Shown: positions 1-46,235, counted from the stretch's first letter. The stretch: 64,000 nt of DNA from Candidatus Aenigmatarchaeota archaeon (GCA_038742305.1 JAVYKI010000002.1:1013-65012), one strand, 5' to 3'. Notes: generated from the sequence alone by a model not told the origin. A program made the numbers and translations.

Positions 1-3000
1 GCCTTTTCTATTAATTTTTCAATTTCTTCTTTAGATACTTCTTCAACATATTTTGGCATTTTAATTTTTCTTTTTTCAAATTCTTTTCTTATTCTTGGTT
101 CTATTCCTTCTAAATAAATATCTACTATATCAAAAGCACCTTGCATTAGTTTGCTTTCTGCAAGCTTAAGCTCTGTTTCTATATCAAACACATCAACTTC
201 ATGCTTTTTCAAAACTTCTAAGTAGAACTTTAATTCTTCAATTTTTCTATCTCTTTTATCATATTCTTCTAGTTCTTTATCACTTAACCTTGTTACTTGA
301 TGCAAAATTGGCCTAAAGCTTACAAAGTATGGCCTTCCTCTATTGTATTCTGCATTTACTATCATTCCAGTACCAACATTAGCTTTTACAATAGAACTTA
401 CAAATTCTTCCCCATACTTCATTTTTATTCTTTCCAAATCTCCTTCATACCTTGTTCTCATTTGAATTTCAGTACCAATATTTGCTCTAATTTCCCCAAC
501 AAAATCACTCAAAACTTGGCTAATCAATATTAAGCCAATTCCCCACTTTCTAAATTCTCTTACTCCTCTTTCTAAAGCAATAAATCCTTTACCGCTTCCT
601 CCAAATTTTGGCAATAATCTATGGACTTCATCATAAACTATTAAAGCTCTCAATTCTTTGCTTTCTTCTAGTTGGGAATTAAATATTTCTTGAATTGTAT
701 TTGCAACGAAAATGTCAATTTCTTCTGGTTTTAGTTTATTAATTACAAAAATATAAATATTGCCTTTTGGATTTTCAATTATTTCTTTTAAGTTTATTTT
801 TTGATAGGGGCTTCTTATTATTTTTATTTTGCCACTAAATCCTCTTGCTTGTTTTTTACTCATTCCAAACTTTGTATATTCTTTTAGCATATAATTTTCT
901 TTACACTTTCTTAAAAATCCAGTCCATTGAGCTGTTGGGTCAAAAACAATAACATTTTTGCCTTTTAATAGCGCTTCTTCTGCAATTACCATAGCAGCAA
1001 TAGTTTTTCCGCTTCCTGTAGCTCCAGCAATCATTGTATGCATTTTTAAATCATCTAAATAAATAAAAGCTCTTCTAGCAGTTTCTGCAATATTTCCAAT
1101 AAATGCTGAATTTTCAGTAGCTTGAGGCAAAGTTGAAAAATCTATTGGAGTAGCAAACCTTTTCTGTTTTTCTTTTATTTTCAAATATCTTCTATAAAAT
1201 ATTATTGAAATTGCAGAGCTAGAAGCTATTAATATTGCAAATAACAATAATGTTTTTAGCTCTACTCCTAAAACTTTTCTTTCTAATAGCGGAATTTCTA
1301 CTGTTACAAAAGCACTAGCTACAGCTTCTTGCTTAATGTCTTCAGTTAAATAAGTCGCTACTGCCTTTACTAAATATCTTTTTTCTGGAATGTTTTCTGG
1401 AACTTTTAGTGAAACAATTTTTGATAGAGAAGTTTCTACTGCTAAACTTTCTTCTACTTTGCTTATTTCTATCATCGCATCACTATCTATTAAAGCTACA
1501 GTTAAATTAACATCAACTCTTTTAGTTTTACCTAAATTGTAAAGTATTACTTCAGCTCTTAAATAATCTCCAGGCTTAACTTTATCTTGAAGCAAAGATA
1601 TTTTTAGATCTAAAAGCTTTAATTCGGAAGGTAAAACTTTTATAGTTATTGGAATGTTAAAGCTTTCGTTTTCTACTATTATTTTTGCATATCCTCTATA
1701 TGTTCTAACTTCTGCATCTTTTGGAATTTCTATGAAAAGTTCAAAATAGTTTGCAGATTTTTTATTTAGCAATATTCTTTTATTATAAACTTTTATAAAT
1801 TGAGAAGCTTCTCCATATAGCATTATTTCTGCATAAACATCTTTCTGCTTGTTGTTTGCAATATTTATTTTCTTAATATCTTTTTCTCCTTGCTTTAATT
1901 CAACATATATTTCTTCAGTTTTAATTTCAACTTTTTCTGTTAATTCTTTTAATGCTTCTTGTATTTTAGAATAATCTATGCTAGGTCTTTCATAATAACT
2001 TGGTGCTGGAGCTGGTGGAACAGAAGTTACTGGACAAGCACCACAATCAATAGAACAGCTTCTACAATCTTCATACAAACTATCACAAATATTATCTCCA
2101 CAAACTACTGCTTCAGCCAACAAAAATGCTGAAGAGGAATTTAATTCTATGTAAGCTTTACTTCTTATTAAATCTATTGTTGGAATTAATTCTATCCAAT
2201 TGCTTTCACAACTTCTATTTTCCAAATTCCAATTACTACACTTGTAAATTCTTAAATTACTAACTTTTATTATTGAGCTAGAATATTCTGAAATATCAAG
2301 TTCAAGCCTTAATTTATCGTAAGTAAAGTTTGGTTCTATTGCAAAAGCAAAAAACCTATTTCTTATATTTGAAACGTTTGGAATTAGAACGTTGAATACA
2401 TCTACTTTAACAAAATTAATAGTAGTAGAATTAATGCTAGCATTGTAATAAATAGCATCATGGTTTTCAATTTTTACTTTTACATCATATTTTCCTGCAA
2501 AAATAGAAGCATTAATTGTTGCGTTTTCATCAGGAACTAATAAATATTCTTTTTCTTTGCTTATTGGATTTAGTAATTCTAAGCTCAACTTTATTAATTT
2601 TTCATCTACAGTTTTTGAAAATGAAATAATACTAACTTTTTCTCCAGCTCTTAATAACTTTTCTTCTATTTTTGAATTGTTGCTCCTATCTCTTGCAAAA
2701 ACTTTTATTGTATAGTCTCCTTTTTCTTCTGGAAATATAATTGATTTGTAAACATTATTTTCTAAATAATAGTTTAGATTAGTTTCTGTTCCGTTTGGAT
2801 AAATTATAAATAGATAAACTTCTTGTATTTCATCATTATCTTCAACTAAAAACTCAACAGTATTATTTTTATTTATTTCTAGTTCTTTTGTTAAAATTGT
2901 TATGTTTGGGCTAATATTATCTATTACTTTTATAATTTGAGGAATTACTTGATAAGAAGTAAAGTTTAAGTAAGAAGCTTCTACAATTAAATCGTTGTAA

Positions 3001-6000
3001 AGCTTTGTAATAGGAACTAAGCAAGAAATGTTGAAAGAATTTGTAATGTTTGTTATTAAGCATTCTTTATTGCTCAACAAAACTCTAAAGCTTATGTTTT
3101 CAGTTATTTCATTATTTTCAAAATAAGCTTTTAAGCTAATGTTTAAAATTTGGTTTGGATAAACTTCTATTAAGTTTATTGGCTCTAAAACTATTAATGT
3201 AAAGTTAACTATAGTAATGTTGAAAATTATAGTTTTTGAAATGTTTAAAGTTTGATTAAATAAAGTAATGTTTTCTAAATAATTTCCTTCTTTAGTTAAA
3301 TTGTAATAAACTGGAATGCTTATTTCTTGAAGCTTTTGCAAAAATACTTCGTTTTCTACTTTTAAGTTTTCTGAAGAATTAATTTTTAATAGTAAATCGT
3401 TGTTTGCAATACTTTTAATAGTTAAATTAGTTAAAAATCCATAACCTTTACCTTTTTGCAATTCAAAATATTCATTTACTAAAAAGCTATAATTGTTTAA
3501 AACATTCACTCTTAAATAAACATACTTTTCAATTCCTTCTGAACTGCTTAACCTTAAAGTTCCCGCATAGCTGTTTGCACTATATCCAAAAGGTATTGTT
3601 ACATTTATTTCTATTTCCTTGCTTTCTCCAGGCATTAAAGTTCCTATAAACGGATTAAATTCTGGGTTAAATTCATAGCATATGGTTCCTAAAATGCATT
3701 CAGCTCTTATATTGCTTACTGGGTCTGTACCAGTAGATTCTATTAAGAATCTAATAGTATATTTTTGGCCGTGATGAGCATCTATCGGCAATGGGTCGTA
3801 TACTTCTAATCTTGCTTCTTTTTTAATTCCTTCAGCAATTACATATGCACCGCTTTGCAAAGTAGTATTTGCTTCTACAAACTTGTAAAGCTTGTTAACT
3901 TTGCTTGGCAACTGTATCCAGTTGTAACAAGTTTTTTCGTAAAAACTATAATCAGAACAATAAATTATTTTTAAATTATCTTCTATTGCACCAACTAATT
4001 GAGCTTCTTCTGGCTTATAATAAATTCTTATAGTTGAGTTAAAGCTTAATGGTAATAAGATTCCAAATCCTCCTAATGGCTTGTAAAGGTTAACTTCCGT
4101 AGAATAAATTTTATCGTATTTAATGAAATCGTTTGGTAAATCTAAAGTGCTTAAGTTATATATTTTTATTTTTGCTTTATCACTTTCTATTAATAAATCA
4201 TAAATTCTTTGATGCAGGCTTAAGTTTTTATATCCGTAAATATTTTCAAACTGCAAAATTTGATTAGTACCATTTCTGTAAAAAGTAAAGTTTAAGTTAA
4301 TTGGCTCATGTAATGCATTAGTAATGTTTACCCAAACATACTTCAAAATAAATACTTCAAAGTAATCTTCTAAAATTAGTGTGTTATTTGTTGTATCGTT
4401 TATGTAAAATATTAAATCGTAATCGTTTGGTTCTAAACTTGTTAACGTAATTTCCCAAGTTAAATTGTTTTCTGTTGTTAATTCAAAATATTGGTTTAAT
4501 TGCTTTACATGCATTAAAACTTTGTCTATTGCAACGTTATCTGTTAAATTAAGCTTTATTGCTACATTGCTTGGATATTCTACGCTTGGAATTTCTTTTG
4601 AAATTAAAGTTGGTTTAGTTACGTCTTTATAGTATAAAGCATTTATTTCTGTTTTTTGAACTGAAACATCATAAGCAATATAATAAGCTGTTAGCGTTAA
4701 GTTGTGCCATCTCCCATCTTCTAATTTTGGCAAGCTACAATTAATTAACCAATAAGCATTTTCTACTCTTAAATTGTTTATTTTGCATTCTTTATTATCT
4801 ACAAAAACTGAAAAGTTCAAATCTTGAGTTATGTATTCATCAACTAATTTAAAGCTAGCATTTATTTCTATGCTTTCGTTTTCCAAAACATTTAAGTATG
4901 GATTAATTTTATTAATTGTTAGCTCTGCAGGATAAACTTCAATTTTAATTGGCAATTTTCTAGTTCCTAAAATATTTTCATAAATAGTTAAGTTACCTTC
5001 GTAAAAGCTTAAATAATTTGGTGCAGTAATATTTGCAAAAACTTGGAATGTTTCTGCTGGATTTAGTTGTTTATAAGTTTCTGTTAAGCTTAATATATCT
5101 GTAACATTTCCTTCTAATGATAAACTACTAAATGTTAATATTTTATTTCCAACATTAGTAATGTTTAGAATGTTTTTAGTATAGTTTTTGCCTGCAATTA
5201 ATTTAATTGTAATGTTTTCTTTATCTGTAACATATCTATAATCTGCTGGAACTATAACTTGTAGTTCAAAGCTTGTTGAATTATCTATGCTTGTAATGTT
5301 TATTATTGGATAATAGTATCCATCTGAAAATCCTAGAGGCAAGCTAATAGTTAAAGTAATATTTCTAATTTCTCCTGCTGGAAAACTAGAAATAAAGCTC
5401 GGACTAAAGCTAACATATTGACATAACGTTGATTCTCTTATGCATTCAAAGCTTATGTTTCTTACTTCTGCATTTCCTTTTGAATAAATTGTAAAATTAA
5501 CTGAATAGCTTGAATTATGGCTTACTACAATGCTTGTTGGATAGTAAGTCAAGTTTATAATTCTTGTTGGCAAAACATTAACTTCTATTGTTGATGCTGA
5601 ATATGCTGTGCTTGAGCTTCCATCTGCATTATTCCAATTTACATATGGCCTAAACGAATATGTGTTTGGTAAAGTTTTTTCTGGAATTGTTACGTTTAAT
5701 AAACAGTAAACTGTTGTATTAGGATTAATAGAAGAAATGTTGCAAGATGTTATTATCCAGCTTGTTCCTCCTGGAGGTAAGGAAGTTAAAGAAACATTGT
5801 ATGCAGTAACAGTATCGTTTAAATTAGATATAGAAAAGTTTATTGAAATAGTTTTCGAATCTTCTTGAGTTATTCCGCTAACTTCGAAATAGTTATTAAT
5901 TGGAGATAAGCTCAATTGAGCTTTTGCAAAAGCTGTAAAATTAAAAGTTAAAGTTCTGCATTTATTACCAGTATCGCAAGCTGTTAAATTAGCTAAATAT

Positions 6001-9000
6001 AAACCTTCTATTGGAGGATAATAATTACAAGTTATTGTTCCATAGGTTAATGAATTTCCTTGAGCGCAAATTAAGGAATCTAAAGTTGAATTCGGTAAAG
6101 TAACGTTTAAATAAACTATTGCTAATTGATTTTGATCGTCATAGAAATAAGCACTAAATGCTTGCAACTTATTAATTTCAATTTTTTCGCTATATGCTAA
6201 ATTGTTGATATACGGAGCTACATCAACTATATGCCAATAAACTAAAGTATAGTTTAAAGTTGGATTTGCAGAATTGTTGCTAATAGTTATGTTTAAACCT
6301 AAATCTACTGAAACATAATAACCATTTTGCCAAAGCTTTATCTGATTGCTAGATTGCTTATCAACAAACAAATATGTTGGGTTATACAATTCACCATTTA
6401 CAACTTTATTTGTTTCAAAAATTCCATTTTCTATTGGATTAGTTGCTGATAATGAAGTATAACTTATGCTAAAGTTTAGAGGAACATTTCCAATGTTTTT
6501 AATAGTTATATTTCCAAGCAGTCCAGCTTCATTTAATCCATAAGTTTCTTCTATTCGGTCAACTTTTGTCCCATTCCTTGAAAAAACTTCCATTATCCAT
6601 CTTGAATCTATTGGAACAGTAACATTTATTTCTATTTCTTTTCTCCTTTCATCTGGATAACCTAAATTGCTAGTTACATTTATTATTCCTCTGTATAATC
6701 CAGGATCTTGGCCTAACGGAATGTTTATTGTTAAAGTAAAACTTTGATAACTTCCATCATCTATGCTTTGCCAATAGTTTGGACTAATTGTTATCCATTC
6801 TTTCGGCAAGTTAATTTCTGTATAATTAACCCAAACATCTTGTAAAGGAGCATTTCCAGTATTGTTTATTGTTATAATTATTGAAAAGCTTTGATTGTGC
6901 TGAATAGTTTGAGTAATGTTATACGTGCTTAGTTCTATTTGAGGATTGCCAACAACTGTAACATATTGTTTATTAGAAAAAATTATTGAAGATTTTTGCT
7001 GCTTGTTATTTATCCAGCTAGCATTGTAAACTTGAGTGTAAGTTCTTGGTTGAGTGCCTGCGGGAATTGTTATGTTGAAAGTTATATTTATTTCACTTTC
7101 TGGCAAAATTTCTGGAATCGGAGTTGCATTAATTATTGAAAATGGACCTGAATATTTAGTTATAGCTAAATTATGAATTGTTCCTTTTCCAGTATTTTTA
7201 ACTGTTATGTTGAATTGCTCAATTTTATCTTCTGTTAAGCTAACATTAAAAACTGTTAAATTGTAAGCAATTATTTGAGCTGAAGTTCTTAAATCTTCTA
7301 AATAATAATTAAAGCTAAAGTTTGCTAATTCGTAAAATGCACTAGAATTAAATGCCGAAACATAAATTGTTTTATTTCCAGCTAATAATTCGCAATTAGT
7401 TCCTATTGTAAAGTTTTGCTCGCAATTATAGCCATAACAAGTTTTTGTAAGACCATCTATTGTAATATTTATTTGGCCTATAATTAATTCATTAGTATCT
7501 ATTCTAGTATAATTACCAACTTTTATAGTTGTAATAGCGCAGCTTGGATTGCTTACAAAATCTTGAATAACTTTATATTCTTTTGTTAAATTAGTTGGTG
7601 CCCAAATTTTTATGTTGCTTGAATTTTCTCCATAAATTCCTTGATAATTTGTTATATTAACTTTTACGTAATGAATTCCTAAGGATGGAGAATTAAACTT
7701 AATTAAATAATTTCCCTGTTCATCTGTATTATTTGAAATTAAAAGGTTATTATCGAAATAAAGCTCTGTTAAGTTATTTATTAAGGGTAAATTATCTGGC
7801 AATAAAATTGCTTTTCCATAGAAAGAAGTTGAATTGTAGATTTTGTTGGAAGGATTTAATTCTATAAATATTTTCTTAACTTCAAAATAATAACTTAAGT
7901 TAATATTATTAGCAATTATTCCATTATTTGAAATTCCGCTAATGCTTACATTTAAATTATGGCTTCCCAAGTTTAAAGGAGCATTAAAAGTTTCTGAAGT
8001 TCTCCATTTGTTTAAAGTAGAATCAAAAACTAATGTGTAATTATTTCCATTTATAGTTAAATTGAAATTTCCTTGATTAACATCAAAATAGCTTGAACCA
8101 TTAAATTCCCTTATTCTTAAAGTTAAATAATAAGTTTCATTTGGATTAAGAATGTTATCTTGTTGATTATGAGAATCTAATAAAGTTAATTGGTCAAAGG
8201 TTAAATTTCTTACTTCTATTAAAATTGAATTTTCTCCATAAATTCCTTGATAATTTGTTATGTTAACTTTTATTTTATGAATTCCTAAAATACTGGATGC
8301 ATTTATTTGGCAAGAATATTCTCCATAATTATTTGTTGCACAACTTCCATTAAACACATTATCTTGATAAACAGAAACATTTTCATTACTAACATTTAAA
8401 TTATCTGGCAATAAAATTGCTTTTCCATAAACATTTATTGCATCGTTTGGATTAGCAATTGTAGAATTTAAATTTATTGTTATATTAATGGATTTAACAA
8501 AAAATGTTATATTTTTTTCTAGCGATTCGTTAGAAACAGAATAGATTATAACTGTAAAGTTATATTCACCAATAGAAGGCACAGAAGTATTGAAGTAAAA
8601 ATATTCTCTTTTGTCTATAGAAACCAAAGGAGTTAAACTAGAGTTTTCCCAAGTTAAAGCATTACCGTTAACTCTGAAAGTTGCGTTTGCTGTTGTTTTA
8701 TTACTTCCTGAAATAAAATTAAAATCACTTGGCAAAATTATATCAAATCTCAAAATATTTTCTAAAATTGATTGTACTGAAAATGTGAAAAGTTGATTTT
8801 CCTTGTTTGCTTGAAGAATTTTAACTTGTGTTGGGGGATTAGATTCTACACTAACAACTCCTATATAAGCTTTTAAAGGTAAGTAATCAGTATTATTGCT
8901 ACAGCTTGTACAACTACTTTTACTAATTAAATCATATGGGATATCACAAATTCCATTATTGTCATTATCTTGACATGTTTTAGAATAATTCTCAAAAGTT

Positions 9001-11072
9001 CCTAAATAAACATTACCGCCAATATAATTACCTTTAATAATATTTTCTGTTTGAGTTAAAGTAGTATTCCAAAAGTTTTGATAAATTGGAGGAATAAAGT
9101 TAGCTATATATTTCGTTTTAAAGAAATTATTGTAAATTAAATTATTTGAAGATGAAGATAAACTAATTGAAAAGCTCATAAGCTTAAAGATATTTGAAAA
9201 AATGTTTGTTGAATTAGATGATATCAAATATATTCCAGTAGAAATTCCTCCTGAACCTCCCGAACCTAAAAAACCACCACTTCCTCCAGCTCCACCAGTT
9301 AAATTACTTATTGTATTCGAATAAATTGTGTTATTTTGAGAATTTTGAAGGTATATTCCAGCAGAAATTCCTCCTGAACCTCCAGAACCTTGATAACCAC
9401 CAGTTCCTCCACTCATTCCTTTAAGTCCGGAAATTGTTAAATTATAAATTATTGAATTAGTAACATTTATTAAAGCTATTCCAGCAGAAATTCCTCCTGA
9501 ACCTCCTGAACCTTGATAACCACCGATTTGAATACTTCCTCCAATTAATATTGGAGGATTAGTTGAATTTATAGTAAAGTTAGCTATTATTATATTAGAT
9601 TTATTGAAAAAGTATAAAATTGGATTATTATCAAAATAGTTTAATTTTGAAGTATCTACAATGTTGTTGTTTAATAAGGTTATTTCATTATTGTAAGAAT
9701 TGGAATCTGAAATCTATATTCCAGCAGAAATTCCTCCTGAACCTCCCGAACCAAAATCACCACCACTTCCTCCAGCTCCACCAGTTAAATTACTTATTGT
9801 ATTCGAATAAATTGTGTTATTTTGAGAATTTTGAAGGTATATTCCAGCAGAAATTCCTCCTGAACCTCCAGAACCTTGATAACCACCACTTCCTCCAGCT
9901 CCACCAGTTAAATTACTTATTGTATTATTTCTTAACAAGTTATAACTACTTTTTACAAGAATTCCAATAGCATTACCTCCATTAAAAGATCCAAAAATAT
10001 AATTTATAATGTTGTTTTCTATAATTGAAAAATTAGCTTGAGAATCTAAAAAAATACCAGTTTGCCATTTTCTAATTATACAATTTTTAATAGTAACATT
10101 TTCAGAATTAACATATATTCCATACAAATTTTTTGAAGAGATATCATTAAGAGCAAAATTACCTTCTATTATTTTTCCATTACAATCCAAAGTTACATTT
10201 TCAGAAGTTATATTAATTCCTGTAGTTAAATTCAAATTTAAAATATCTTTGCTTAAAGTGTAATAACCGGGTTTATTTATTAATAAAACATAAATTAAGC
10301 TTGAGTTCAATCCACTTATTCCATTAGAATCTGTTGTATTAATTGTTATATTATAAATTCCTAAATCTGAAGGAACAGAAAAAGTATAACTATAATTTCC
10401 ATTAGAATCAGTAGTTACATTACTTAAAAAGTTATCATCTAAGTAAATGCTTATATTTATGTTTGGAACTGTTAAATTATCTGGCAATAAAATTGCTTTT
10501 CCGTAAACATTTATTGCATCTCCTGGATTAACAATTGTAGAATTTAAATTAATTGTTACAAAAATTTTTCGAACAATAACAGTAACATTTAATTCTTCAA
10601 TGCTTCCATTTTCATACAAAGCTTTTAAAGTAAAGTTATAATATCCAACATCTGGAACAGAAGAATTAAACCAAAAATTTTTTGTTTCATTAGCTAAAAT
10701 TAGCCCAGAAAAATTTTGCCAAACTAAAGTATTTCCATAAACAAAAAAATCAGAAAAAGCATTTGTTCCGTTGCTATTAGAAATAAAACTAAAGCCTGAA
10801 GGTAAAGTAATATTAAGCTGAGTAATATTTAAAGAAAGAGTATTGTTAACAGTAAAGTTAAAAAGCTGATTAGGTAAATTTGCTTGAACTGCTTGAGGAT
10901 ATGTAATAGAAAAAGGAGGGGTATGAACTTTAACTTCTAAGCTGAAAACGTTTATAAAAAAAGCTAAAGTTAATATTAATGTAAACCATAATTTTTTACT
11001 ATTCATATCTTTCATTAATGTTTCGAAGAATAAAAGCAAAGCTTTTAAATAAGCAAAAAATTTAAAAAGCAA
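1..11072 (-). CDS. Giant secreted/surface protein, partial (runs off the left edge). It has an N-terminal signal peptide, a beta-helix region with Gly-rich GGAGGSGG..GSGGSGGISAGI repeats, many Asn/Thr-rich Ig-like modules, a TM helix and a C-terminal cytoplasmic HerA/FtsK-like P-loop ATPase domain. An in-frame TAG sits at 9714-9716.
   Basis: The ORF track gives 9714..11072 (452 aa, MLFKFF...LILTLAFFINVFS signal peptide). I translated the minus strand by hand below the TAG and it continues in the same frame (codon starts at positions congruent to 2 mod 3), with the same Gly-rich repeat motifs. No other M-initiated ORF is listed anywhere in 534..8610 on either strand, consistent with a single open frame to position 1. 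Near the 3' end: the hydrophobic segment LLLFAILIASSSAISIIF, then Walker A HTMIAGATGSGKT (~1000-1040), Walker B LIVYDEVHRL, and a tail ...EKRKIKMPKYVEEVSKEEIEKLIEKA leaving the window. NxT/S sequons are abundant. Confidence 0.6.
7560..7700 (-). repeat. A ~70-140 bp intragenic duplicate of 8190..8290 (ttttctccataaattccttgataatttgttat(a/g)ttaactttta...atgaattcctaa).
   Basis: By-eye alignment; both copies lie in the giant ORF frame. Confidence 0.5.
8395..8480 (-). repeat. Ig-like module repeat (YGKAILLPDN...). It is ~90% identical to 10472..10557, and a partial copy lies at ~7797-7830.
   Basis: Shared string ttatctggcaataaaattgcttttcc(a/g)taaacatttattgcatc...ttgtagaatttaaatt. Confidence 0.6.
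9229..9402 (-). repeat. Intragenic repeat copy 1 (~175 bp). It is near-identical to 9714..9887 and encodes Gly-rich beta-helix turns (GGAGGSGG..GSGGSGGISAGIY).
   Basis: I aligned the two copies by eye at an offset of 485 bp and found only a handful of mismatches. The 26-nt core ccagcagaaattcctcctgaacctcc recurs at ~9231, 9361, 9481, 9721 and 9841, a period of about 120-130 bp. Confidence 0.7.
9714..9887 (-). repeat. Intragenic repeat copy 2. Its first codon is the in-frame TAG, where copy 1 has TAT (Tyr).
   Basis: Direct comparison of 9229-9240 (aatatattccag) with 9711-9723 (atctatattccag). Confidence 0.7.
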
Positions 11073-11172
11073 AGAAAAAGTTGAGAAAAAAGGTTAAAAA
11101 ATCAAAAAATAAAAAAGATAAAAGAAAAAATTTCGAAAAAGTTGAAACTTCGAAAATCGAAATAAATAAATA
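11073..11172. promoter_or_regulatory. Divergent intergenic/promoter region between the giant gene and the wHTH-MinD pair. It is poly-A rich and carries a repeated ttcgaaaa / ttcgaaaatcgaaa motif.
   Basis: Sequence ...tttcgaaaaagttgaaacttcgaaaatcgaaataaataaatattgataatt... lies immediately upstream of both divergent starts. Confidence 0.4.
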
Positions 11173-11469
11173 TTGATAATTATTATTATGGATAACAGAG
11201 AAATATTAAAAGAAAGAATTAAATTTGTTCTCGATTTATTAAAAGAAGAAAGAAAAGAGCAAAAAATTATCGGTAGAAAAGAAAAGAACAAAGAAAAAAT
11301 TTTGGAGTTTTTGAAGCAAAATAAATTTGCTACTTTAGAAGATATTGCAAAACTTTTAAACATTTCAATTAATAGAGCTTCAGAATATTTGAACGAATTA
11401 TTCAAAGAGCAAAAAGTTACTTACATAAGAAAAAACAAGAAAAAATACTTTAAGTTGTTAAATGGTTAG
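11173..11469 (+). CDS. Small K/E-rich winged-helix (HTH) DNA-binding protein. The true start may be the MDNREIL at ~11188.
   Basis: The C-terminal ...FATLEDIAKLLNISINRASEYLNELFKEQKVTYIRKNKKKYFKLL looks like a wHTH. It overlaps the downstream ATPase gene by 8 nt. Confidence 0.5.
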   Translation: MIIIIMDNREILKERIKFVLDLLKEERKEQKIIGRKEKNKEKILEFLKQNKFATLEDIAKLLNISINRASEYLNELFKEQKVTYIRKNKKKYFKLLNG

Positions 11470-12205
11470 AATAATAGGAATAGTAAGCGGAAAAGGAGGA
11501 ACAGGAAAAACTTTAATAGCAACCAACCTTTCTTATGCAATTTCTAATTTAGGCTTTAAAACTTTATTAATAGATTTTAACTTTACAACTCCCCACATTC
11601 CAATAATTTTAAATTCGAAGCCATCTTTTACTCTTAACGATTTTTTAGAAGAAAGGGCAGATTTTTACGAAATTTTAAATCCGCACTTAAACTTTTTCTT
11701 TGTTTCCCCTTCAACTAGCCTGCAGGATTTAAAAAATTTTAAAATAGAAAATATTGAAAAGCTTAAAGAAAAGCTAAGCTATTTTGATTATGTAATAATA
11801 GATTCTGCTCCAGGTTTTGGAAGAGAAGCAACTTATTCTTTTCTTTTTTCAGATGAAATATTAATAATTGCAAATCCAAATTTATCTTCTTTGTTCGATT
11901 CTTTAAAGTGCTATGAATTAGCCAAAAGATTAGATAAAAAAGTTTTAGGAATTTTAATAAATAGATATACTAAAGATTCAGCCCTAACAATTCAAGATTT
12001 TAAAAATGTTTTCGAAATACCAATACTAGGAATAATTGAAGAAAGTAAAATTGCAAAGCAGTTAGATTTAAAGAGGAAAATGCTTTACGATTTAGATAAA
12101 AACTTTCAAAATCAAATTCTTGAAGTTGCTTATAAAATTTGTAATCTCGAAATTAAAAAAGAAAGCTTTTTGGAAAAAATAAGAAGGTTTTTCAAAATTA
12201 TCTAG
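11462..12205 (+). CDS. MinD/ParA-family (deviant Walker A) ATPase.
   Basis: GIVSGKGGTGKTLIATNLS near the N-terminus and DYVIIDSAPG later. The gene ends with a TAG stop at 12203-12205. Confidence 0.8.
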   Translation: MVRIIGIVSGKGGTGKTLIATNLSYAISNLGFKTLLIDFNFTTPHIPIILNSKPSFTLNDFLEERADFYEILNPHLNFFFVSPSTSLQDLKNFKIENIEKLKEKLSYFDYVIIDSAPGFGREATYSFLFSDEILIIANPNLSSLFDSLKCYELAKRLDKKVLGILINRYTKDSALTIQDFKNVFEIPILGIIEESKIAKQLDLKRKMLYDLDKNFQNQILEVAYKICNLEIKKESFLEKIRRFFKII

Positions 12206-12800
12206 CACCTTCAGCTTCCCTTTCTATTCTTTCTTTTTCTTTTAATGCAAAGCTTTTAGAAATATCATTATTAGCTGCAGCAATAATTTCTTCTGCAAGA
12301 ACTTCTGACATTTTTGTAAAGTTAACTTTTCTTCTATAGCAAGAATTAACAATATTCCTTAAAGCTATATCTACTCTTCTTTGAGGGCTAACTATTACTG
12401 CACTCCTAGCAATTATTCCACCGACTTGATAAGAAACAGCTTCTTCTAATGGAGCAGAATTTTCTATTGCTCTTACTAAAACTTCAATCGGATTTCTTTT
12501 AGTTCTTTTTTCAATTATTTCAAAAGCTTCTTTAACAATTTTAATTATTTTTTCAGTTTTTCCTGCACAATGAGCAGAGCTAATTAAATGCTTTTTACCT
12601 TTATGCCCAGGTCCAAACATCTTGTTTATTAATCTTTCAACAATATTCATGTTTGCTTTCCCGAACCTTTTTTGGCTAAATCTTCCATAAGTTTTTGGAA
12701 TAACGCAAGGCTTAAGGTTTATATATCTTTTTAGCCCTAAATCTTTTACTTCAACATTCCAATCCCATTTTCCAAAAAGTTTTAATTCTTCTACAGCCAT
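12198..12800 (-). CDS. rps7: 30S ribosomal protein S7 (uS7).
   Basis: Length, sequence and position directly downstream of S12, in the conserved archaeal rpo/str-like block. Confidence 0.8.
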   Translation of the reverse strand: MAVEELKLFGKWDWNVEVKDLGLKRYINLKPCVIPKTYGRFSQKRFGKANMNIVERLINKMFGPGHKGKKHLISSAHCAGKTEKIIKIVKEAFEIIEKRTKRNPIEVLVRAIENSAPLEEAVSYQVGGIIARSAVIVSPQRRVDIALRNIVNSCYRRKVNFTKMSEVLAEEIIAAANNDISKSFALKEKERIEREAEGAR

Positions 12801-13222
12801 TATCTAGCAGGCTTTTGCTTTTTACCTTTTCTTATTGCATCCAAAGAAACTCCATTAACAGCTATAACTTTCCATCTTACTCCCCACATAGAACCTATTG
12901 GTCCTTTTTGACCGCCACCTAAAGGTTCAACTATTACTTCATCATGCTCATTTATAAAGTTTATACTTCCGCTTTTTGGAACAAAAGCAGTTAACTGTCT
13001 TCCATTTTTAACTAATTGAACTCTTACACATTTAATTAATCCAGAATAAGGCCTTTTCTGCTCTACTATTCTCTTTTCAATTACTATTCCTCTAGCTTGT
13101 GGAGCACCTTCTAATGGATCTTTTTTCCATAAGCCTAAAACTCTATTTTTAAACTTAAAAGAGCTCCATCTAAACTTTTTCCTTCTTTTTATTAATATTC
13201 TTGCAGCAAACTCTCCAGGCAT
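12800..13222 (-). CDS. rps12: 30S ribosomal protein S12 (uS12).
   Basis: ...[47 protein letters not shown]... is a typical S12 core. Confidence 0.85.
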
Positions 13223-13887: not shown

Positions 13888-14965
13888 TTTCCCTTAATGT
13901 TATTTCTACTGCTCCAGTTCCTATTGGAACAACATTTCCAATCATTAAGTTTTCAAAGCTGCTTTTTAATTCATCTTTTGCTCTTCTAACAGAAGCATTA
14001 ACAATGTTTTTAACTGTTTCTTCAAAGCCAGCTCTTGCAAGAATAGAATATTTTCTTCCAGCAACTCCATACCTTCCAATTGGGCTTATTGTACCATTAA
14101 AAGTCATAGTATCTGCAATTATAAATAAAAATCTTAAATTGACATCTAAACCTTGCTGTTGCAAAACTTTCATTACTTCCATTAAAAGCAAATTTCTAGC
14201 AGCCTCTATTCCCAAGACTTCAGCAACTTCATGAGGATTATTAGAAATTGTTCTTGTTTCGTCAACTTCTTCTATTTGCAAAACTTCTTTTAAGTTTGAG
14301 CCAATAGTTTGAATTATCCAATCATCTTTTTCTTTATAAACTATAGCAGTTTCGATTCCTTTAATTCCTTTAAATACCATGCTTCCTATTCTATCTCTAA
14401 GCCTTCTCAACTCTTTTATGCTATATTCTTTTCTAGGAATTATTTCAATTCTTTTTCCTTTTTTCTTTACAGAACCAAGCTTTATTTTTTCTTTTAGGAA
14501 TTCATAAACTTCTTCAAAATACTGTTCTTCGGGCTCAATTTCTAAAGAAAGCTCTGTAAGGTTTAAATAAATTCTGCTAACTTCTCCAATCTTTTTTTGA
14601 ATTAAAGAGCTTGCAACTCTATAAGCATCTTTTTCATTATTGTATTCTTTTTTTAAGTAAATTGTCATGCTTGGAGTAGAAATATCTTTTCTTGCATCAA
14701 AAAGCTCAATTAATCTTGGCAAACCTAAAGTAATTTTTATTCCTACAGCACCAGCAACATGGTATACTCTCATAGTTGCTTGAGTAGCAGGCTCGCTGAT
14801 GCTTTGAGCTGTTAAAATTCCAATAGCTTCTTGTGGCTCAAAAATAACTTTTTCATAAGCTTTTCTTACAGCTTCTTCTAATTTTTTCTTTTGCTCTTCG
14901 CTAAAATTATACTTTTTGCTAACTTTTTCTATTAACTCTTTTATTCTTATTGGTAGCTCAATCAT
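13865..14965 (-). CDS. rpoA2: DNA-directed RNA polymerase subunit A'' (C-terminal third of Rpb1).
   Basis: ...[26 protein letters not shown]... matches the trigger-loop region. The start overlaps the upstream rpo ORF by 4 nt. Confidence 0.85.
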
Positions 14966-17900
14966 ATTTCTTTTGCAATTTCTTCTACATTAATATCTCC
15001 ACCTTCAACTTTATATGGATCAATTAAATCTTCTCCAGCAATAAATTGAATTATATTTCCACTAGAATCTCTTATTGTTCCGTCATATTCAATTTTCAAA
15101 TCTTGTAAAGCTCCAATAAACCTCCTTTCCAAATAACCGCTATGCCTAGTTTTAACACTTTTATCCATAAGAGATTCTCTAGAATTAATCATTTCAAAGT
15201 ATAATTCTATTGGCTTTAATCCTTCTTTAAATCCTCTTGGAACAAATCCTTTTGCTTCTAAACTAATATCATTCCTTTCAAAGTGTGGAAAGCTTCTTAA
15301 GTAATAACCAATTTCTATTCTTCCTCCCATAACTTTTTCTTGACCGATCATTCCGGAAATTTGTATTATATTTACTAAGCTACCCCTTGCTCCAGAAGCT
15401 GCCATAACAAAAACTTCACTCTCTCTTTTAATTTCTGGCAAAACTAACTTAGAAACTTCTGTTAAAACTTCATTAACTATTCCATTAATTAATTGCTCCA
15501 AAGTTTCTTTTTCAGTCCTTCCTATTAAAGCTTCCAATTTTCCTTCTCTAAACTTTTTAATTAATTCATTAACTTTATCATTTGCTTTTTTAACTAACTT
15601 TTCAATTTCACTTTTAACTTTTTGAGAAATTGAATAATCAGCAAAAGAAATGCTAAATCCATGATAAAGCAAAAAGTTCATTCCAAGTTTTGAAACATTT
15701 TCAATAAACCTTTTTGTATAGTGCTCTCCAAACAAAGTTAATATTCTGTTTAATAATTTTCCGTTTTCTCCAACAGCTTTTTTATCTATTGCTCCATTTA
15801 TTAACTTTCCATCTTTTATAACTACATAACCTTCTTTTTCATCAACAGAAGCTAATGAACCTTTGAATTCTAATGAAATTTTTGGTAAGAAGCAGCTAAA
15901 TATTTCTTTTCCAGTTAAGTATTCTTTTCTCGGAATTTCTACGTTTAAATCTATTTCTCTTATAAGCTGTACAGCATCTTCATACTTTATTTTTCTTTCT
16001 CCATAAGTTAGCAAGAATAATCCAGAAATTTGATCGTGCAATAAAGCAATTATTGGACCTCCATACCTCGGGCTTCTAATATGCTTTATTACACTCATTA
16101 ATATTTCTGCTTCAGTCATAGCTTCTATTGATTGAGGAACGTGCAAATTCATTTCATCCCCATCAAAATCTGCATTGTATGGAATAGTTGTGCACAAGTT
16201 AATTCTAAAAGTTTTTCCGCTAGTAACTCTAACTCTATGAGCCATCATGCTCATTCTATGCAAGCTTGGCTGCCTATTAAACAAAACTATATCTCCATTA
16301 AGCAAGTGCCTTTCAACAATCCAGCCAGGGGCAATTCTTTTAGCAATTTCTTCTTTATTTTTATCCATTATTTTTATTCTTGTTCCATCTGGAGCAATTA
16401 CATAATTTGCTCCAGGCCATTTTTCTCCATTCAAAATAAGCTTTCTAATTTCTTCAATATTTTCTTCATTAACTACTACTGGCACAGTTAATTCTATAGC
16501 TAAAATTTCTGGAACTCCAACTTCATCTATATCTAAATATGGATCTGGACTAATTACGCTTCTAGCAGAAAAGTTTGTTCTTTTTCCTAGCAAGTTATAT
16601 CTAAACCTTCCTTCTTTTGTTTCTAATCTTTGAGAAAGAGTTCTTAAAACTCTTCCACTTCTATGCCTAGCAGGAGGAATTCCGCTTAACTCATTATCGT
16701 AAAACGTTGCAACATGATATTGTAATAATTCCCACAAATCTTTAATAATAAATTCTGGAGCACCAACTTCTAAAGTTTCTTTAAACCTTTCGTTTATTCT
16801 AACAATATCAACTAATTTATGAGTTAAATCGTCTTCACTTCTTTCTCCAGTTTCCAAAACTATAGAAGGCCTAACTGTAACTGGAGGAATTAGCATTACG
16901 CTTAATATAAACCATTCAGGCCTTACTCTTATACCAATTTTTTTCAGCTCTTCATCTTCGATAGAAGCTAAAAATTCTCTTAGCCATTCTCTATCAACTT
17001 CTTTATCATCAATTTTAAAAGTATAAGGCCTTATAAATTCAATTTTTGGCTGTTTTGCTTTGCAATGAGGACAAGTGGAAGGTAAAGATTTTAAGAATTC
17101 TTTAACTTTTGGCTTTTCTTCTTTTGTTAAAACTTTTTTACAGTTTTTGCAAACAGCTCTTAAAATAGTGTAAATATGCCTAACAAACAAAGGATGTATA
17201 ACCGGCTTAGCTAATTCTATATGTCCAAAGTGCCCAGGACAAGTTGCATATGTTCCAGCGCAAGTTCTACATCTTATTCCAGGGTCAACAGTTCCTAATC
17301 TTGGGTCCATTATTCCGCCTTCAACAGGATAACCTTCTTCATCATAAACATCAATTTTATTAATTTTTGCAACAGACATTTTCTTAATCATTTCAGGACT
17401 TAAAACGCTAAATTCAATGCTTATAACTCTTCCTAAGTTTTTATCTACAATTAATTTTGGATAAATGTGCATTGAAATAAGCTCTTGCAATAATAATTTA
17501 AATCCATAGCTCATTTCAACTAATACTACTTCACTACTATCATCACAAACATTACACCATAGTCTATTTCTTATTCTATCTTCATAAGCAATTAATCCGC
17601 ATCTCGCACAAACTGGAATTAATGTTTTATCGGAATCAAATCTTTCCTTTAAAGTAATTGCAGCACCATGAGCAATTAGTACATCCTTTTCCATTTCTCC
17701 TAATCTTAATCCACCTTCTTTTATTCTTCCTTCTGTTGGCTGCCTTGTTAATAATGTTACAGGCCCTCTAGTTCTTGCGTGTATTTTGTTAGAAACTAAA
17801 TGGTCTAATTTCATGTAAAATCCGCTTCCAATTAATATTCTAGCTTCATATTTTTTACCTGTTCTTGGGTCGTACATTACTTCTCTTCCATCTTCGCTAA

Positions 17901-19236
17901 ACCCAAGCTCTTTTAACATTTTAACTAATTCTTCTTCACTCATTCCTTCAAAAGCAGTGGCATCTATAAATTCTCCCTTTATTGCAGCAATTTTTCCAGC
18001 AACTATTTCTAATAATTGACCAACAGTCATTCTAGATGGAATGCTGTGGGGATTAAAAATTATATCTGGAACAATTCCGCTTTCTGTAAATGGCATATCT
18101 TCTTGTTTAACTAATAAACCAACGACTCCTTTTTGGCCATGCCTAGTTGCAAACTTATCTCCAATTTCCGGAACTTTTAAATCTCTTACAACAACCTTAA
18201 CCAATTTATTACCATCTAAAGTTGTAGTAATATAAACTCTATCTACAATACCTTTATCTCTATGCCTTAATTCTATCGAAGTTTCTCTTAAGTTTTCTGG
18301 AGAAATTATGAATTGAGTTGTTGTTCCAAGAAATCTTAACGGCGAAGTTCTGCCGATTAAAACTTGTCCTCCCTCTACTCTTGTTTCTGGAGGAACTATT
18401 CCATCAACATCTAAATGCTTATATGCATCTTCCCCTCTATATCCTTTAATTCCTGGCATTGGAATTCCTATTACATCTTCTTGTCCAGAAGGATATTTCT
18501 TTTCTTCAGCTTCATAAGTTCTAAACATGTAGCTCCAGAACAATCCTCTTTCTACGCTAGATTTATTTAATACAATAGCATCTTGCATTGCATAAGGATG
18601 AGAAATTATTGCAATTACAACATTATTACCTATAGGATGAGTATCAAAAGGAAAAGTTTCGTATGCAACAGTTCTAACTAATGGTATTTGAGTATATAAG
18701 CCAATGTTTGCCTTAGAATCTGCTCTAGTTTTATAAGCTAAATTATAAATTCCAATAGCTTGTCCACTCATTTTTGCACCATAGTTTATTCTATCCCCTC
18801 TATTATGTTCTACAAAAGGAATTAGAGAAGCATGCAACCCTAAAGTTATTGCTGGATGAATTTCTATATGAGTATGTTTTTCAGTTGCGTCTGGATATAA
18901 AGAAATATAAGCATTTTCTTCTTCTTCTGCATCCAAAAATTCTATTATTCCTTCTTTAACTAAATCGCTAAACTTTATTTTTCCATTTTTCAATTCTTCA
19001 ATCTTTTTAATTAAATCTTTATATCTTTCTCTTACAATTGCAGGCCTTCTAATTCTTCCAGAGCCAGTATTTATTCTAACTTCATTCTTAAATTCTAAAA
19101 CAGCAACATTTACTTGATATGATATTTTTCCACTTCTCCTTAATTCTCTTATTTTTTCAAATATCTTTTCTGGGCTAGAAGTGTATCCTAAAAATTCTCC
19201 ATCCAAATAAACTTTATATTTAGCCTTCATTTTCAA
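14962..19236 (-). CDS. rpoB1-rpoA1: Fused RNA polymerase subunit B' (RpoB C-terminal part) and subunit A' (Rpb1 N-terminal part), a single 1424-aa ORF.
   Basis: N-terminal half: ...[44 protein letters not shown]...[21 protein letters not shown] (RpoB C-terminus). It is followed without a stop by [51 protein letters not shown]...[29 protein letters not shown] (RpoA' zinc site). I checked the junction DNA at ~17400-17520 and found no stop. Confidence 0.75.
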
Positions 19237-26904: not shown

Positions 26905-27043
26905 CGCCGGGGGTGGGATTCGAACCCACGCGGGCGTAAAGCCCACCGGCTTTCTCTCTAATATTTGTTCATCATTAATCAGTTACCCCAGAGCTTATCA
27001 TTAACTCGAGGCCGGCGCCCTGGTCCAGCTAGGCGACCCCGGC
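26905..27043 (-). tRNA. tRNA-Ser(CGA), type II with a long variable arm and a ~54-nt intron after position 37.
   Basis: GC-rich island. The reverse complement GCCGGGGTC GCC TAGCTGGACCAG GGC G CCGGC CUCGAG [intron] A GCCGG UGGGCUUUACGCCCGCG UGGGUUCGAAUCCCA CCCCGGC G folds as a cloverleaf. The anticodon was read manually. Confidence 0.7.
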
Positions 27044-42271: not shown

Positions 42272-43003
42272 TTATATAAACTTATTTAAATTCTTTTTTA
42301 TTTGATTAATTACTTTCTTTTCACTAACTTTATAAAAATTTGCAATTTCTTTAACAACTTCTATTACATCTTTGCTATTCATTTTTACATTTTTATATTC
42401 ATATGGACCATCGCTTTCAGTTAAAATATTTTTTAAATCTAAAATTTCTAAAGCTTTTCTATGATTTTCTTTAAATTTTAAAGTAATGTTGAAAGAGCAA
42501 AAGTATCCAACATTTTTAATTTCTTCTAAATAAGAAGAATATTGTACCCAATGAAAATTTGCTTTCTTTATATCAAATTTAAAAACTATATCTAAAACTT
42601 CTTTTATAGAATTTGCAGAGTGTAAATTTACAGGCAAATCATATTCTTTTGCAACTTTAATTTGCTCTACAAAAATTTCTTTTTGTTTTTCAATAGTTTT
42701 TGAAAAGAAAATTTTATCTAATCCGATTTCTCCAATTCCTATAGCATATTCAACTAATTTTTCAATTTCTTTTAAATCTTCTTTTTTTGCTAAATGAGCA
42801 TTCCAAGGATGAATTCCAACAAAAATTGGTAAATTAAATTTTTTATAAATTTCAATATTTTTTAAAGAAGTTTCCAAATTTTCGCTTACAGAAAAAATTA
42901 AAATTTTTTGATTTAAAAAATTTTCAATTTCTTTTTCAGAATATTCATAAGCATGACAATGAATATCGAAATATTTAAATAACTTGAGCTGTTCCTCCAG
43001 CAT
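42272..43003 (-). CDS. tatD: TatD-family metal-dependent hydrolase/DNase.
   Basis: FDIHCH...GIHPW...IGEIGLD...LHS...ESDGPY TatD motif series. Confidence 0.7.
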   Translation of the reverse strand: MLEEQLKLFKYFDIHCHAYEYSEKEIENFLNQKILIFSVSENLETSLKNIEIYKKFNLPIFVGIHPWNAHLAKKEDLKEIEKLVEYAIGIGEIGLDKIFFSKTIEKQKEIFVEQIKVAKEYDLPVNLHSANSIKEVLDIVFKFDIKKANFHWVQYSSYLEEIKNVGYFCSFNITLKFKENHRKALEILDLKNILTESDGPYEYKNVKMNSKDVIEVVKEIANFYKVSEKKVINQIKKNLNKFI

Positions 43004-44243
43004 GCCAACTTAATCTAGGCCTAATTACTGCAGTTAAAATTCTTTCAGAATTATCATCTAAAATTATTGCAGCTCCAGGAATTCTCGGCAATTTATTAAA
43101 TAATATTTCCAATTCTTCTTCTACGTAAGTTTGCATTATCGCTCTTAATGCTTTTAAATCTTCTCTAGCTGTTAATCTAAAAGAAATAACTATATCTGTT
43201 TGACTTAATAAATCTTGATGCAATTTATTTGGCATTTGAGTTATACAAATTAAATTTACTCCAGGCTCTCTTCCTTGCTTTGCAATTCTTAATATTGGAT
43301 CTAGTGCAATAGTTTGCTTATCGCTTGGAGCAAAATTTTGTGCTTCTTCAAAAAGCAGCCAAGTAATTGGAAAAAAATATTTTTGCTCTCTTCCTTCAAT
43401 TTTTGCAATTTCTTCTTCTTTTCTAGATAAAACTCTATTAAAATAAATAGTATTTGCAAGCCATGCAGCAATCATATTCATTATAGCAATATTTTTAACT
43501 CTTGATAAATCTATTACAGTAACTTTTCCAGGAACAACAAAATCTTCAATTCTATTTCCATATTTTTCAAAAATTTTCCAGGATTCTATTGTTTTAAAAG
43601 TGCTAACTAAAAACTTTTTAACTTCATCTTCTATTTCGTTATCATTTTTTATTTTCTCTATTAAATCGTTTAAATCATAAATTTCCTTTTCCTTTGCTAA
43701 TTCATTTAAATTTTTTTCTAATGCAATAGCTGCTTTGCTAGTTCTTTCTAATTCTAATGTCCTAATCCAATCTTCTGCAGTAAATATGTTAGTAGCTAAA
43801 GAAAAAGAATCGTCAACAGGAATTCCAGCATTAATATAATCTTCATACAAACCTTTTGGAACTAATACTCTAAAATATTCTTTAAAACCTCTTGGCTCTA
43901 AATTCCATTGTTGCAAAATTTGCTTCATTGCTAAGTTTGGATATTTCATGCTCCAATAAATTCCCATCGGGTCAACTATTACAAAAGCACTTTTATTCCT
44001 TATTTCATCTTCTAATTTGCAAAATTCTTCTATAATTACTCCAGCAGAAAAACTTTTTCCAGAGCCTCTTTTGCCACAAATTAAAACAACATGAGCTTTT
44101 ATAAAATCGAAATAAACTTTTGTAGTAAGCTGCCAATCATATTCACCAATTACTAATTGTCTTCCAATAAATCCAGCACCTTTAATTCCATATTTTTTTA
44201 AATCTTCTTTGCTTCTTCCAACAACATTTTCAATAATTTCCAT
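42975..44243 (-). CDS. HerA/FtsK-superfamily P-loop ATPase (DUF87-like).
   Basis: VVLICGKRGSGKSFSAGVIIEE Walker A; ITWLLFEEAQNFAP Walker B-like; overlaps the tatD start by 29 nt. Confidence 0.6.
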   Translation of the reverse strand: MEIIENVVGRSKEDLKKYGIKGAGFIGRQLVIGEYDWQLTTKVYFDFIKAHVVLICGKRGSGKSFSAGVIIEEFCKLEDEIRNKSAFVIVDPMGIYWSMKYPNLAMKQILQQWNLEPRGFKEYFRVLVPKGLYEDYINAGIPVDDSFSLATNIFTAEDWIRTLELERTSKAAIALEKNLNELAKEKEIYDLNDLIEKIKNDNEIEDEVKKFLVSTFKTIESWKIFEKYGNRIEDFVVPGKVTVIDLSRVKNIAIMNMIAAWLANTIYFNRVLSRKEEEIAKIEGREQKYFFPITWLLFEEAQNFAPSDKQTIALDPILRIAKQGREPGVNLICITQMPNKLHQDLLSQTDIVISFRLTAREDLKALRAIMQTYVEEELEILFNKLPRIPGAAIILDDNSERILTAVIRPRLSWHAGGTAQVI

Positions 44244-45311: not shown

Positions 45312-46235
45312 ATGGTTTCAAAAAGCTTTGGTGCTATATTTAATAACTTTATTATATTACTATTTTTATTTTCTGTAGTTTTTGCTCAGAATGAAACCAA
45401 TCCATTAGAAATAGTACTAGGAATAATACCGGTAATAATTGTAATATTAATACTTTTGTGGTTGGGCGGAGTATTTAAAGCTCCAGGAGGAAGATTTCCC
45501 CTAGCTCCTATACTTTATGTACTACTTATAGTAATAATTTTTGTATTACCTCTTTTACAAAGGTTAGGTTATATTAAGATTTTTCCCGATACTATAAGTT
45601 CTGAAACGTTAAAGCAATGGGGATTTCCTCAGCAAAACAAATTACCAGATTTCGCTTGTAAAGTTCTTACTGGTTTAACTTTGCAAGAAGAAATTGCTTG
45701 TTATGTTCCTGAACTTATATTCTTCTTTATTCTTCCTTTTGCAGCAATTTTTGCTATAACATGGGCATTTTTAAAAATGTTAAATATATTTGAAAATGTA
45801 CCAAATGCTGATAACATTTACAGATTATTAGCTTTTATAATAGCATTTATGACGATTCCTATGGGTATTTTTATGATTCTTATAGCTACATGGTTTAGCT
45901 TTTTAGGCGCTTTTTCTATTGCTGTTTTTGTTGCAATGTTTATTGCTGGAGTGTTTTTCAGAGGATATGGATATATTAGAGCAGAAGCTTATGGAGTAGC
46001 TTTAAAAACTTTATCTATAAGAATAAAAGAAGCTAGAGCTAAATTTGAAAAATTATTAGATCAAGTGGATGATTTGAGTGTAGATGCTCTAAGAAATGAA
46101 TTAAAAGATTTAAGAAGAGCTTATGGAGATCTAGATGCTGTAGTTTCTGAAATTCCAACTAAAACTGAAATTGATAATTGGGATAAAAATACAATAAAGC
46201 AAAGAATTCAAAACATAATTAACAAACTTAAATAA
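45312..46235 (+). CDS. Polytopic membrane protein with a signal peptide and a C-terminal cytoplasmic coiled coil. It appears related to the two small membrane proteins at 49516-50564.
   Basis: Hydrophobicity pattern; FILPFAAIFAITWAFLKMLNIFE resembles VPFLISFAFFYALFEKIKI in the downstream paralogs. Confidence 0.4.
   Translation: MVSKSFGAIFNNFIILLFLFSVVFAQNETNPLEIVLGIIPVIIVILILLWLGGVFKAPGGRFPLAPILYVLLIVIIFVLPLLQRLGYIKIFPDTISSETLKQWGFPQQNKLPDFACKVLTGLTLQEEIACYVPELIFFFILPFAAIFAITWAFLKMLNIFENVPNADNIYRLLAFIIAFMTIPMGIFMILIATWFSFLGAFSIAVFVAMFIAGVFFRGYGYIRAEAYGVALKTLSIRIKEARAKFEKLLDQVDDLSVDALRNELKDLRRAYGDLDAVVSEIPTKTEIDNWDKNTIKQRIQNIINKLK

Follow-up and report, generated by a model that had tools for sequence, protein, structure and literature searches.

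The window analysed here, a 64,000-nt (64-kb) stretch of DNA from an AT-rich DPANN archaeon (Candidatus Aenigmatarchaeota), carries on its minus strand a giant surface-protein gene of ~3,700 codons that is interrupted by an in-frame amber codon, TAG, at positions 9714..9716. The presence of this codon inside the gene is a genuine observation and not a product of chance. On balance, we favour the reading that it is a plain premature stop which arose very recently from a TGG codon and which may be either fixed or polymorphic in the population; that this nonsense allele is present in cells and affects the protein is what we infer from the comparisons described below. Of the explanations listed in a sequence-only reading of this DNA, two stay live, namely a recent nonsense change and a repeat-related assembly or consensus error. 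Both are ordinary: the codon is either a Trp amber mutation or a repeat-associated consensus error of a kind already known, and it does not represent a novel type of feature. For annotation, the two ORFs on either side of the codon are not two genes but one giant gene, interrupted or mis-assembled, and the TAG gives no reason to suppose that a DPANN archaeon uses an altered genetic code.

The stop is codon 434 of the giant gene and appears on the plus strand as CTA at 9714-9716. From an ATG at 11015 on the minus strand, the same start that an independent gene caller picked on a Logan contig, the frame runs through 433 codons to the TAG; beyond it, another 3,237 open codons follow without a change of frame as far as window position 2, giving one stop in 3,671 codons between the ATG and the window edge. 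Shuffled sequence contains about 9% stop codons and its longest open run has a mean of 66 codons and a maximum of 111, so an open frame of this density and length is not due to chance; the remaining two frames at this locus are open for only 34 and 49 codons. There is no frameshift at the TAG, since the flanks on both sides align without gaps to the orthologue, and a frameshift reading was rejected because the frame is continuous across the codon. Direct reading and translation thus bear out the earlier statements that the TAG lies within the giant gene and that the frame is the same upstream and downstream. The first in-frame start after the TAG is an ATG at 9416, 99 codons downstream, with no ATG, GTG or TTG before it.

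The 5' part of the gene (9717..11015, minus strand, as are all features of the gene below) was delineated by translation and Pfam searches and comprises a signal-peptide-like N-terminus, an N-terminal domain, an Ig-like domain and the first half of a right-handed β-helix. The N-terminus is hydrophobic (MKDMNSKKLWFTLILTLAFFINVF...) and is predicted from its sequence to be a signal peptide. The 3' part (2..9713), defined by translation, Pfam and the orthologue, runs off the window and comprises the rest of the β-helix, Asn-rich arrays of the Ig-like/NPCBM_assoc type, one transmembrane helix and a cytoplasmic P-loop ATPase. The right-handed parallel β-helix domain spans approximately residues 250-717 (8865..10268) when the TAG is replaced by a residue, and is split mid-way by the stop. 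In the upstream 433 residues alone, the Pfam Beta_helix and NosD matches end at the TAG, covering profile positions 1-92 of 158, whereas with the TAG replaced the Beta_helix match extends across the site over profile positions 1-156 of 158. The segment read through the stop passes the Pfam gathering score both for Beta_helix (PF13229; 44.4 bits versus a cutoff of 25.9) and for NosD (PF05048; 66.6 bits versus 23.6), the latter matching just downstream of the TAG. Because the Beta_helix match spans the site once the stop is replaced, the TAG interrupts a single right-handed β-helix domain. Exact look-up of the product of the 5' ORF, as 422 or as 433 residues, returned no recorded match.

A single transmembrane helix (LKTLLLFAILIASSSAISIIFY, 1194..1259), predicted by inspection of the sequence, lies between the extracellular part and the C-terminal ATPase (2..1190). 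The ATPase matches Pfam DUF87 at 38.2 bits (cutoff 23.2) and also ResIII, contains a Walker A motif (GATGSGKT, 1002-1025) and a Walker B motif (LIVYDEVH, 621-644), and retrieves HerA chains from the PDB with E=3e-7. The DUF87 match and both Walker motifs assign the predicted C-terminal domain to the HerA/FtsK superfamily of P-loop ATPases. None of the NCBIfam equivalogs CedD, HerA and VirB4 was matched, the best being CedD at 49 bits against a cutoff of 600 and the others falling far under their cutoffs. A membrane-anchored giant surface protein with a HerA/FtsK-type ATPase could plausibly serve as a cell-contact or translocation device. Giant surface proteins occur in DPANN archaea, for example the SPEARE proteins of Nanohaloarchaeota, and the protein described here resembles these in the size of its gene, which exceeds 3,600 codons, in belonging to a small DPANN-like genome rich in AT, and in having a signal-peptide-like N-terminus followed by long arrays of extracellular domains. 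It differs from them in its domain set, with a NosD-like β-helix, Ig-like arrays, one transmembrane helix and a cytoplasmic HerA/FtsK-type ATPase. The literature on DPANN giant proteins yielded nothing that bears on this gene in particular.

The β-helix contains five Gly-rich units (...NLTGGAGGSGGxxGSGGSGGISAGI-X-L...), arranged in the order R1, R2, a unique linker module, and R3 to R5. Comparison of the units reveals a 183-nt repeat whose copy A (units R1-R2, 9715..9897) and copy B (units R4-R5, 9229..9411) are identical at 178 of 183 positions (97%), with an exact common stretch of 130 nt and an in-frame spacing of 486 nt. The last two bases of copy A are the TA of the TAG. Identity between the copies ends right after these two bases, copy A continuing with G ATT TCA and copy B with T TTG ATA, so that copy B is followed by TAT (Tyr) at 9228-9230. 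Between the two copies lies the unique 'long-linker' module (9412..9713; ISDSNSYNNEIT...SKLNYF...PILYFF...PILIGGS plus unit R3), which in homologues follows a conserved Trp. The TAG sits exactly where the homogenised Gly-rich repeats, which end in GGAATA-TAC or GGAATA-TAT, give way to a unique module, and the last 32 nt ahead of its G are identical to units R1 and R4, both of which continue with TAC.

Over their last 60 nt, the repeat units share 77-97% identity within each genome and 60-80% between the window and the orthologue genome. The orthologue's Trp-bearing unit shares 95% identity with a paralogous unit of its own genome and only 70% with its positional counterpart in the window, and unit R2, which precedes the TAG, appears to be a mosaic of R5-like and R1/R4-like stretches. 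The higher identity within than between genomes, together with the mosaic unit, shows concerted evolution of the β-helix repeats, with gene conversion active among the units. The near-identical internal duplication described in the sequence-only reading is therefore real as a 183-nt repeat of 97% identity, but the stop does not lie at a simple duplication junction; the repeat belongs to a five-unit β-helix set that evolves in concert. The Tyr codon of the paralogous copy is likewise real, though that reading placed it one base off, at 9229-9231.

Taking that TAT as the comparison codon proved wrong, and it was rejected as the ancestral codon because it belongs to a paralogue. In the syntenic orthologue, from the Candidatus Aenigmatarchaeota MAG JAWBAK010000001.1, which represents the nearest relative found, the codon at the site is TGG (11420-11422 of the orthologous locus, L001), within GGAATA TGG ATA GGA GAT TCA (G I W I G D S) as compared with GGAATA TAG ATT TCA GAT TCC in the window. 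The codons that follow the GGAATA anchor are, in order, TAC, TAG, GCT, TAC and TAT in the window and TAT, TAT, TGG, TAT, TAT and TAT in the orthologue. We also carried out an exhaustive HMMER search with the 138 residues downstream of the TAG; together with the first set of homologues, it provided 61 module boundaries in 42 proteins. The modules of the long-linker subtype, to which the window's module belongs (S..N...SKLN...PILYFY...PILIGGS), have W at the site in 19 of 20 cases and R in the other, whereas those of the short 'NPTN' subtype have Y (27), F (12) or H (2). The truncated proteins P0002 and P0058, which the pattern had missed, also have W at this position. With TGG in the orthologue and Trp in 19 of 20 modules of the same subtype, homologue comparison identifies TGG as the ancestral codon and the event as TGG to TAG, which would be a single G-to-A transition at the middle base. 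The paralogous repeat, with its TAT, can mislead here; it is the orthologous codon that identifies the change.

The orthologue shares synteny with the window, the ParA/MinD-like gene being followed in both by a small HTH gene and then by the giant gene. The MinD proteins are 63% identical, and the 3' part of the giant protein is 65% identical over 3,154 residues, collinear and free of stops and frameshifts. In the orthologous MAG, the corresponding repeat region is interrupted by ~95 N, and the record lists a 'partial' 502-aa gene and a 3,278-aa gene; this apparent two-gene state is thus explained by the scaffold gap. A profile search of genome contigs with the window/P0002 alignment retrieved only L002, which is the same locus as L001, and L003, whereas a search of the same contigs with the single protein found no relative. 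L003, from another Aenigmatarchaeota MAG, has only the first ~100 residues in common and then encodes a different giant protein that runs off the contig end, so the N-terminal module seems to be mobile between proteins. Among metagenome contigs, a protein-alignment search returned only an unrelated 768-aa surface protein (L004), and a search with the exact junction carrying N at the middle base of the stop gave 0 matches.

Downstream of the TAG, 3,237 codons remain intact and share 65% identity with the orthologue, so that the stop is either very young or not real. In the downstream part, 5.9% of possible single-base substitutions would create a stop, and an untranslated remnant would have a 16% chance of staying open at 0.3% neutral divergence and less than 5% at 0.5%.

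If real, the stop could have arisen by more than one route. A G-to-A transition in TGG is in the mutational direction favoured in a genome so rich in AT, the sequence having a composition of about 26-27% GC. An alternative would be a short conversion tract from a Tyr-type repeat that halted after the second base of the codon, leaving a chimeric codon with TA from the Tyr donor and G from TGG. Because the codon lies at the end of Tyr-type repeats, an ordinary transition and a conversion tract are both possible, and a template switch by assembly or polishing software would be a third route to the same sequence. The codon resembles a Trp amber mutation in a young pseudogene or truncated allele in that TAG is one transition away from a conserved codon, the frame is kept, the downstream part is intact and TAG is an ordinary stop in this genome. 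It is unlike a plain amber mutation in sitting, to the base, at the end of a homogenised repeat, where a conversion tract or an assembler could yield the same base. A comparable process is known from the pilE/pilS system of Neisseria, where some of the recombinants generated by conversion are non-functional. The likeness extends to repeat units homogenised within the genome, to a mosaic unit before the TAG, and to a codon whose TA matches the Tyr-type donors and whose G matches TGG; unlike pilE/pilS, the giant gene has neither a silent donor cassette nor a second allele and gives no evidence of switching, and a point mutation explains the data equally well.

The TAG shows what characterises a nonsense allele: it is one base from the sense codon of relatives, and frame and homology continue beyond it with no compensating restart. 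In cells carrying it, ribosomes would stop after residue 433 and the product would be an exported, unanchored fragment with half a β-helix. At least 3,237 codons would be left untranslated, including those for the rest of the helix, the Ig-like arrays, the membrane anchor and the HerA/FtsK-type ATPase. The downstream part would probably not be made separately, since the first in-frame start is so far from the TAG and a product begun there would be without a signal peptide. If the stop is real, the population or strain has just lost its giant surface protein, which bears on the dispensability of such proteins.

Three readings that give the TAG a biological role were weighed against a premature stop. 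The first holds that UAG is decoded by design, through pyrrolysine, a suppressor tRNA or stimulated read-through, so that a full-length protein is made; the perfectly intact downstream frame fits this, and the 64 kb covered here are part of a genome in which pyl genes or a tRNA(CUA) could sit elsewhere. TAG nevertheless behaves as a normal stop in the window. Table-11 ORFs of at least 100 aa cover 95.7% of it without a second in-frame TAG, and the many in-frame TAG codons and fragmented ORFs that mark a reassigned TAG were not seen. Stop usage over the 51 ORFs of the window is TAA 30, TGA 16 and TAG 5, including the TAG under study. This survey of stop usage, which had been proposed for the whole genome, was run on the 64-kb window, where TAG is the terminator of 4 of the 50 other ORFs, in each case at the true end of the protein. 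The MinD/ParA-like gene (11462-12205) ends in TAG within 5 residues of the end of its orthologue, as expected if the TAG at 12203-12205 is its true stop, and in the ProRS, PBP-family and TP_methylase proteins TAG directly follows complete domains, the frame beyond the ProRS stop merely entering the next gene. ARAGORN detected no tRNA in the window. Rfam recognised one only, a tRNA-Ser(CGA) that has a long variable arm and carries an intron, and on this basis the idea that the window encodes a suppressor tRNA was rejected. The 64-kb window contains no pylT tRNA(CUA) and no pylS or pylBCD, and Pfam revealed no Pyl or release-factor genes among the window ORFs scanned, which comprised all but a few short ones. 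The 120 nt from the TAG fold no better than shuffled sequence (MFE -6.9 kcal/mol versus a shuffle mean of -7.2, z=0.13), and an RNA structure that stimulates read-through was rejected. The genes for methylamine methyltransferases of methanogens, with their pyrrolysine UAG, are similar in that UAG likewise occurs in frame within conserved archaeal genes which are otherwise intact. They are dissimilar in that here TAG is an ordinary stop, neither pyl genes nor a tRNA(CUA) nor a structure after the TAG were found in the window, and homologues have at this position a Trp of a structural repeat. UAG is not avoided as a terminator, the host gene encodes a β-helix surface protein and not a methyltransferase with a Pyl position, and we know of no described genetic code that assigns Trp to UAG. 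True TAG stops elsewhere, the tiling of the window by standard-code ORFs and the lack of a suppressor tRNA or structure in the window make recoding unlikely, in agreement with the sequence-only reading on simple read-through. The same evidence, with the conserved Trp, argues against the programmed event which that reading had also listed, and we regard it as highly improbable. Only slightly less remote is a functional split into a secreted 433-aa N-terminal protein and a separately initiated downstream protein. The fusion of the N-terminal ~100 residues to a different giant protein in L003 is consistent with a split, but the stop cuts a single β-helix domain, no start codon is available for 99 codons, and the restarted product would lack a signal peptide for an extracellular part of ~2,800 aa. 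Moreover, the orthologue has a sense codon at the site and owes its two-gene look to the scaffold gap only. The remaining role would be that of a recombination-driven on/off switch of a giant host-contact protein, the TAG being a recurrent gene-conversion product at the boundary between Tyr-type repeat and Trp module. A tract ending before the codon would leave TGG (ON), one ending after the second base would give TAG (OFF), and one ending after the third base would give TAC or TAT (ON, Tyr being tolerated in the related module subtype); recombination between the 183-nt copies would delete 486 nt in frame and thereby remove the stop. Only one allele was seen, and the data support repeat conversion and not switching. 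We consider such a conversion-driven switch, for which the positional coincidence is the sole positive evidence, very unlikely.

A different kind of explanation is that the organism has TGG and that the A was introduced during assembly, gap-filling or polishing of the repeat region. This seems to us possible, though less probable than a real nonsense allele. The TAG lies at the exact end both of the 32-nt stretch common to R1 and R4 and of the 183-nt repeat, in a type of repeat that short-read assemblers mishandle, and three of the four sister units (TAC, TAC, TAT) have A at this column. The orthologous MAG is unassembled through the same region, every repeated 31-mer in this region is a break point in the Logan contigs of the same organism, and the 3,237 downstream codons show no decay of any kind, complete intactness over 9.7 kb being what an artefact, too, would produce. 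The apparent replacement of the rpoB' stop by TTA, as a possible second stop-codon oddity, could also hint at consensus errors. Against such an origin, every k-mer that a de Bruijn assembler reports should be present in the reads, paralogous reads that map wrongly would as a rule be clipped ahead of the mismatch, and paralogous reads would be expected to push the third base to C or T as well, giving TAC or TAT instead of TAG; these three points are inferred from the way in which such programs operate. No frameshifts or broken genes are seen in the rest of the window. The other 50 ORFs are all intact and none represents a split gene, and every domain that was checked has its full length, so that the consensus does not appear to be generally error-prone, and the view of a generally error-prone assembly was rejected as the five adjacent overlapping ORF pairs are all distinct full-length genes. 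The site is similar to the repeat gaps and consensus errors of short-read MAGs in the N gap and partial genes of the orthologue and in the breaks of Logan contigs at repeated 31-mers. It is atypical of them in that the region is assembled through, without an indel and within an otherwise clean 64 kb, and a substitution to exactly TAG is not what repeat collapse usually leaves.

Logan contig L005 (SRR21619488) is 100% identical to window positions 10473-12842, a stretch of 2,370 nt next to the giant gene, and when Logan unitigs were predicted from the repeated 31-mers, the contig end seen at 10473 was recovered. Look-ups of the partial products so predicted, carrying W, Y, Q, E, K or L at codon 434, gave no match, and neither did three positive controls. 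The site-specific k-mers for the Logan unitigs of SRR21619488 and SRR34265293 are GGAATATAGATTTCAGATTCC and GGAATATGGATTTCAGATTCC; nothing was found in the literature on these two SRA runs.

Elsewhere, the window encodes, by Pfam, split archaeal RNA polymerase subunits, ribosomal protein S7, aIF2, ProRS, archaeosine TGT, SRP54, GINS and Rad50/Mre11-type proteins, among others. The stop of rpoB' seems to be replaced by TTA at ~17430-17440, possibly a second oddity of stop codons in the window, and the Logan contigs around rpoA'' end short of the rpoB'/rpoA' junction.

The C-terminal end of the giant surface protein (window 2-1259, minus strand) is predicted to consist of one transmembrane helix followed by a cytoplasmic ATPase of the HerA/FtsK superfamily. 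The top NCBIfam match of this ATPase is the DNA-translocating ATPase CedD, with a score far under the cutoff, and there are weak matches to VirB4 and TraD as well. An architecture that couples a translocase-type ATPase to more than 3,200 residues of extracellular protein is unusual; the Aenigmatarchaeota orthologue shares it. Separate from the giant gene, the window also contains a stand-alone HerA/DUF87 ATPase gene (42975-44243, minus strand) and a gene for a type II/IV secretion ATPase (T2SSE) of 733 residues (46228-48429, minus strand), both of which might be part of a surface-structure or transfer machinery.

In that orthologue, from a public MAG (JAWBAK010000001.1), the same Gly-rich repeat region of the giant gene is broken by some 95 N of scaffold gap (locus positions 11509-11603), and for this reason the record lists a "partial" gene of 502 residues and another of 3,278 residues, which are almost certainly one gene. 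In a second Aenigmatarchaeota MAG (JAVYPJ010000001.1, locus positions 6001-7254), the first ~100 residues of the giant protein, comprising the putative signal peptide and the N-terminal module, recur with ~51% identity. There they are joined to a Gly-rich protein of quite another kind, which is cut off by the end of the contig. The presence of this segment on a different protein suggests that giant surface proteins exchange modules.

The organism of the window is present in no fewer than two or three publicly available sequencing runs, including SRR21619488 and SRR34265293. A Logan contig from SRR21619488 corresponds to window 10473-12842 and is 100% identical over 2,370 nt; one from SRR34265293 corresponds to 10473-12264 and encodes an identical MinD/ParA-like product. 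The two contigs share their start point, which lies directly after a 31-mer that is repeated inside the giant gene.

RNA polymerase subunits B' and A' lie in one frame, forming a single ORF of 1,424 codons (14962-19236, minus strand) with its junction near 17430-17440. The B' half comprises Rpb2 domains 4-7 and the A' half Rpb1 domains 1-5. In relatives the B' C-terminus reads IYPK(I/V)(V/I)xxx-stop; at exactly the point of that stop the window has TTA, one base from TAA. The conserved A' N-terminus has no start codon ahead of it, and none of the best 120 database matches covers both halves. The ORF represents either a natural B'-A' fusion, which would be comparable with the rpoB-rpoC fusions of bacteria, or a second stop-codon anomaly of the window assembly.

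A tRNA-Ser(CGA) at 26905-27043 (minus strand), not detected by ARAGORN, was detected by an Rfam match and features a long variable arm and a 57-nt intron within the anticodon loop.
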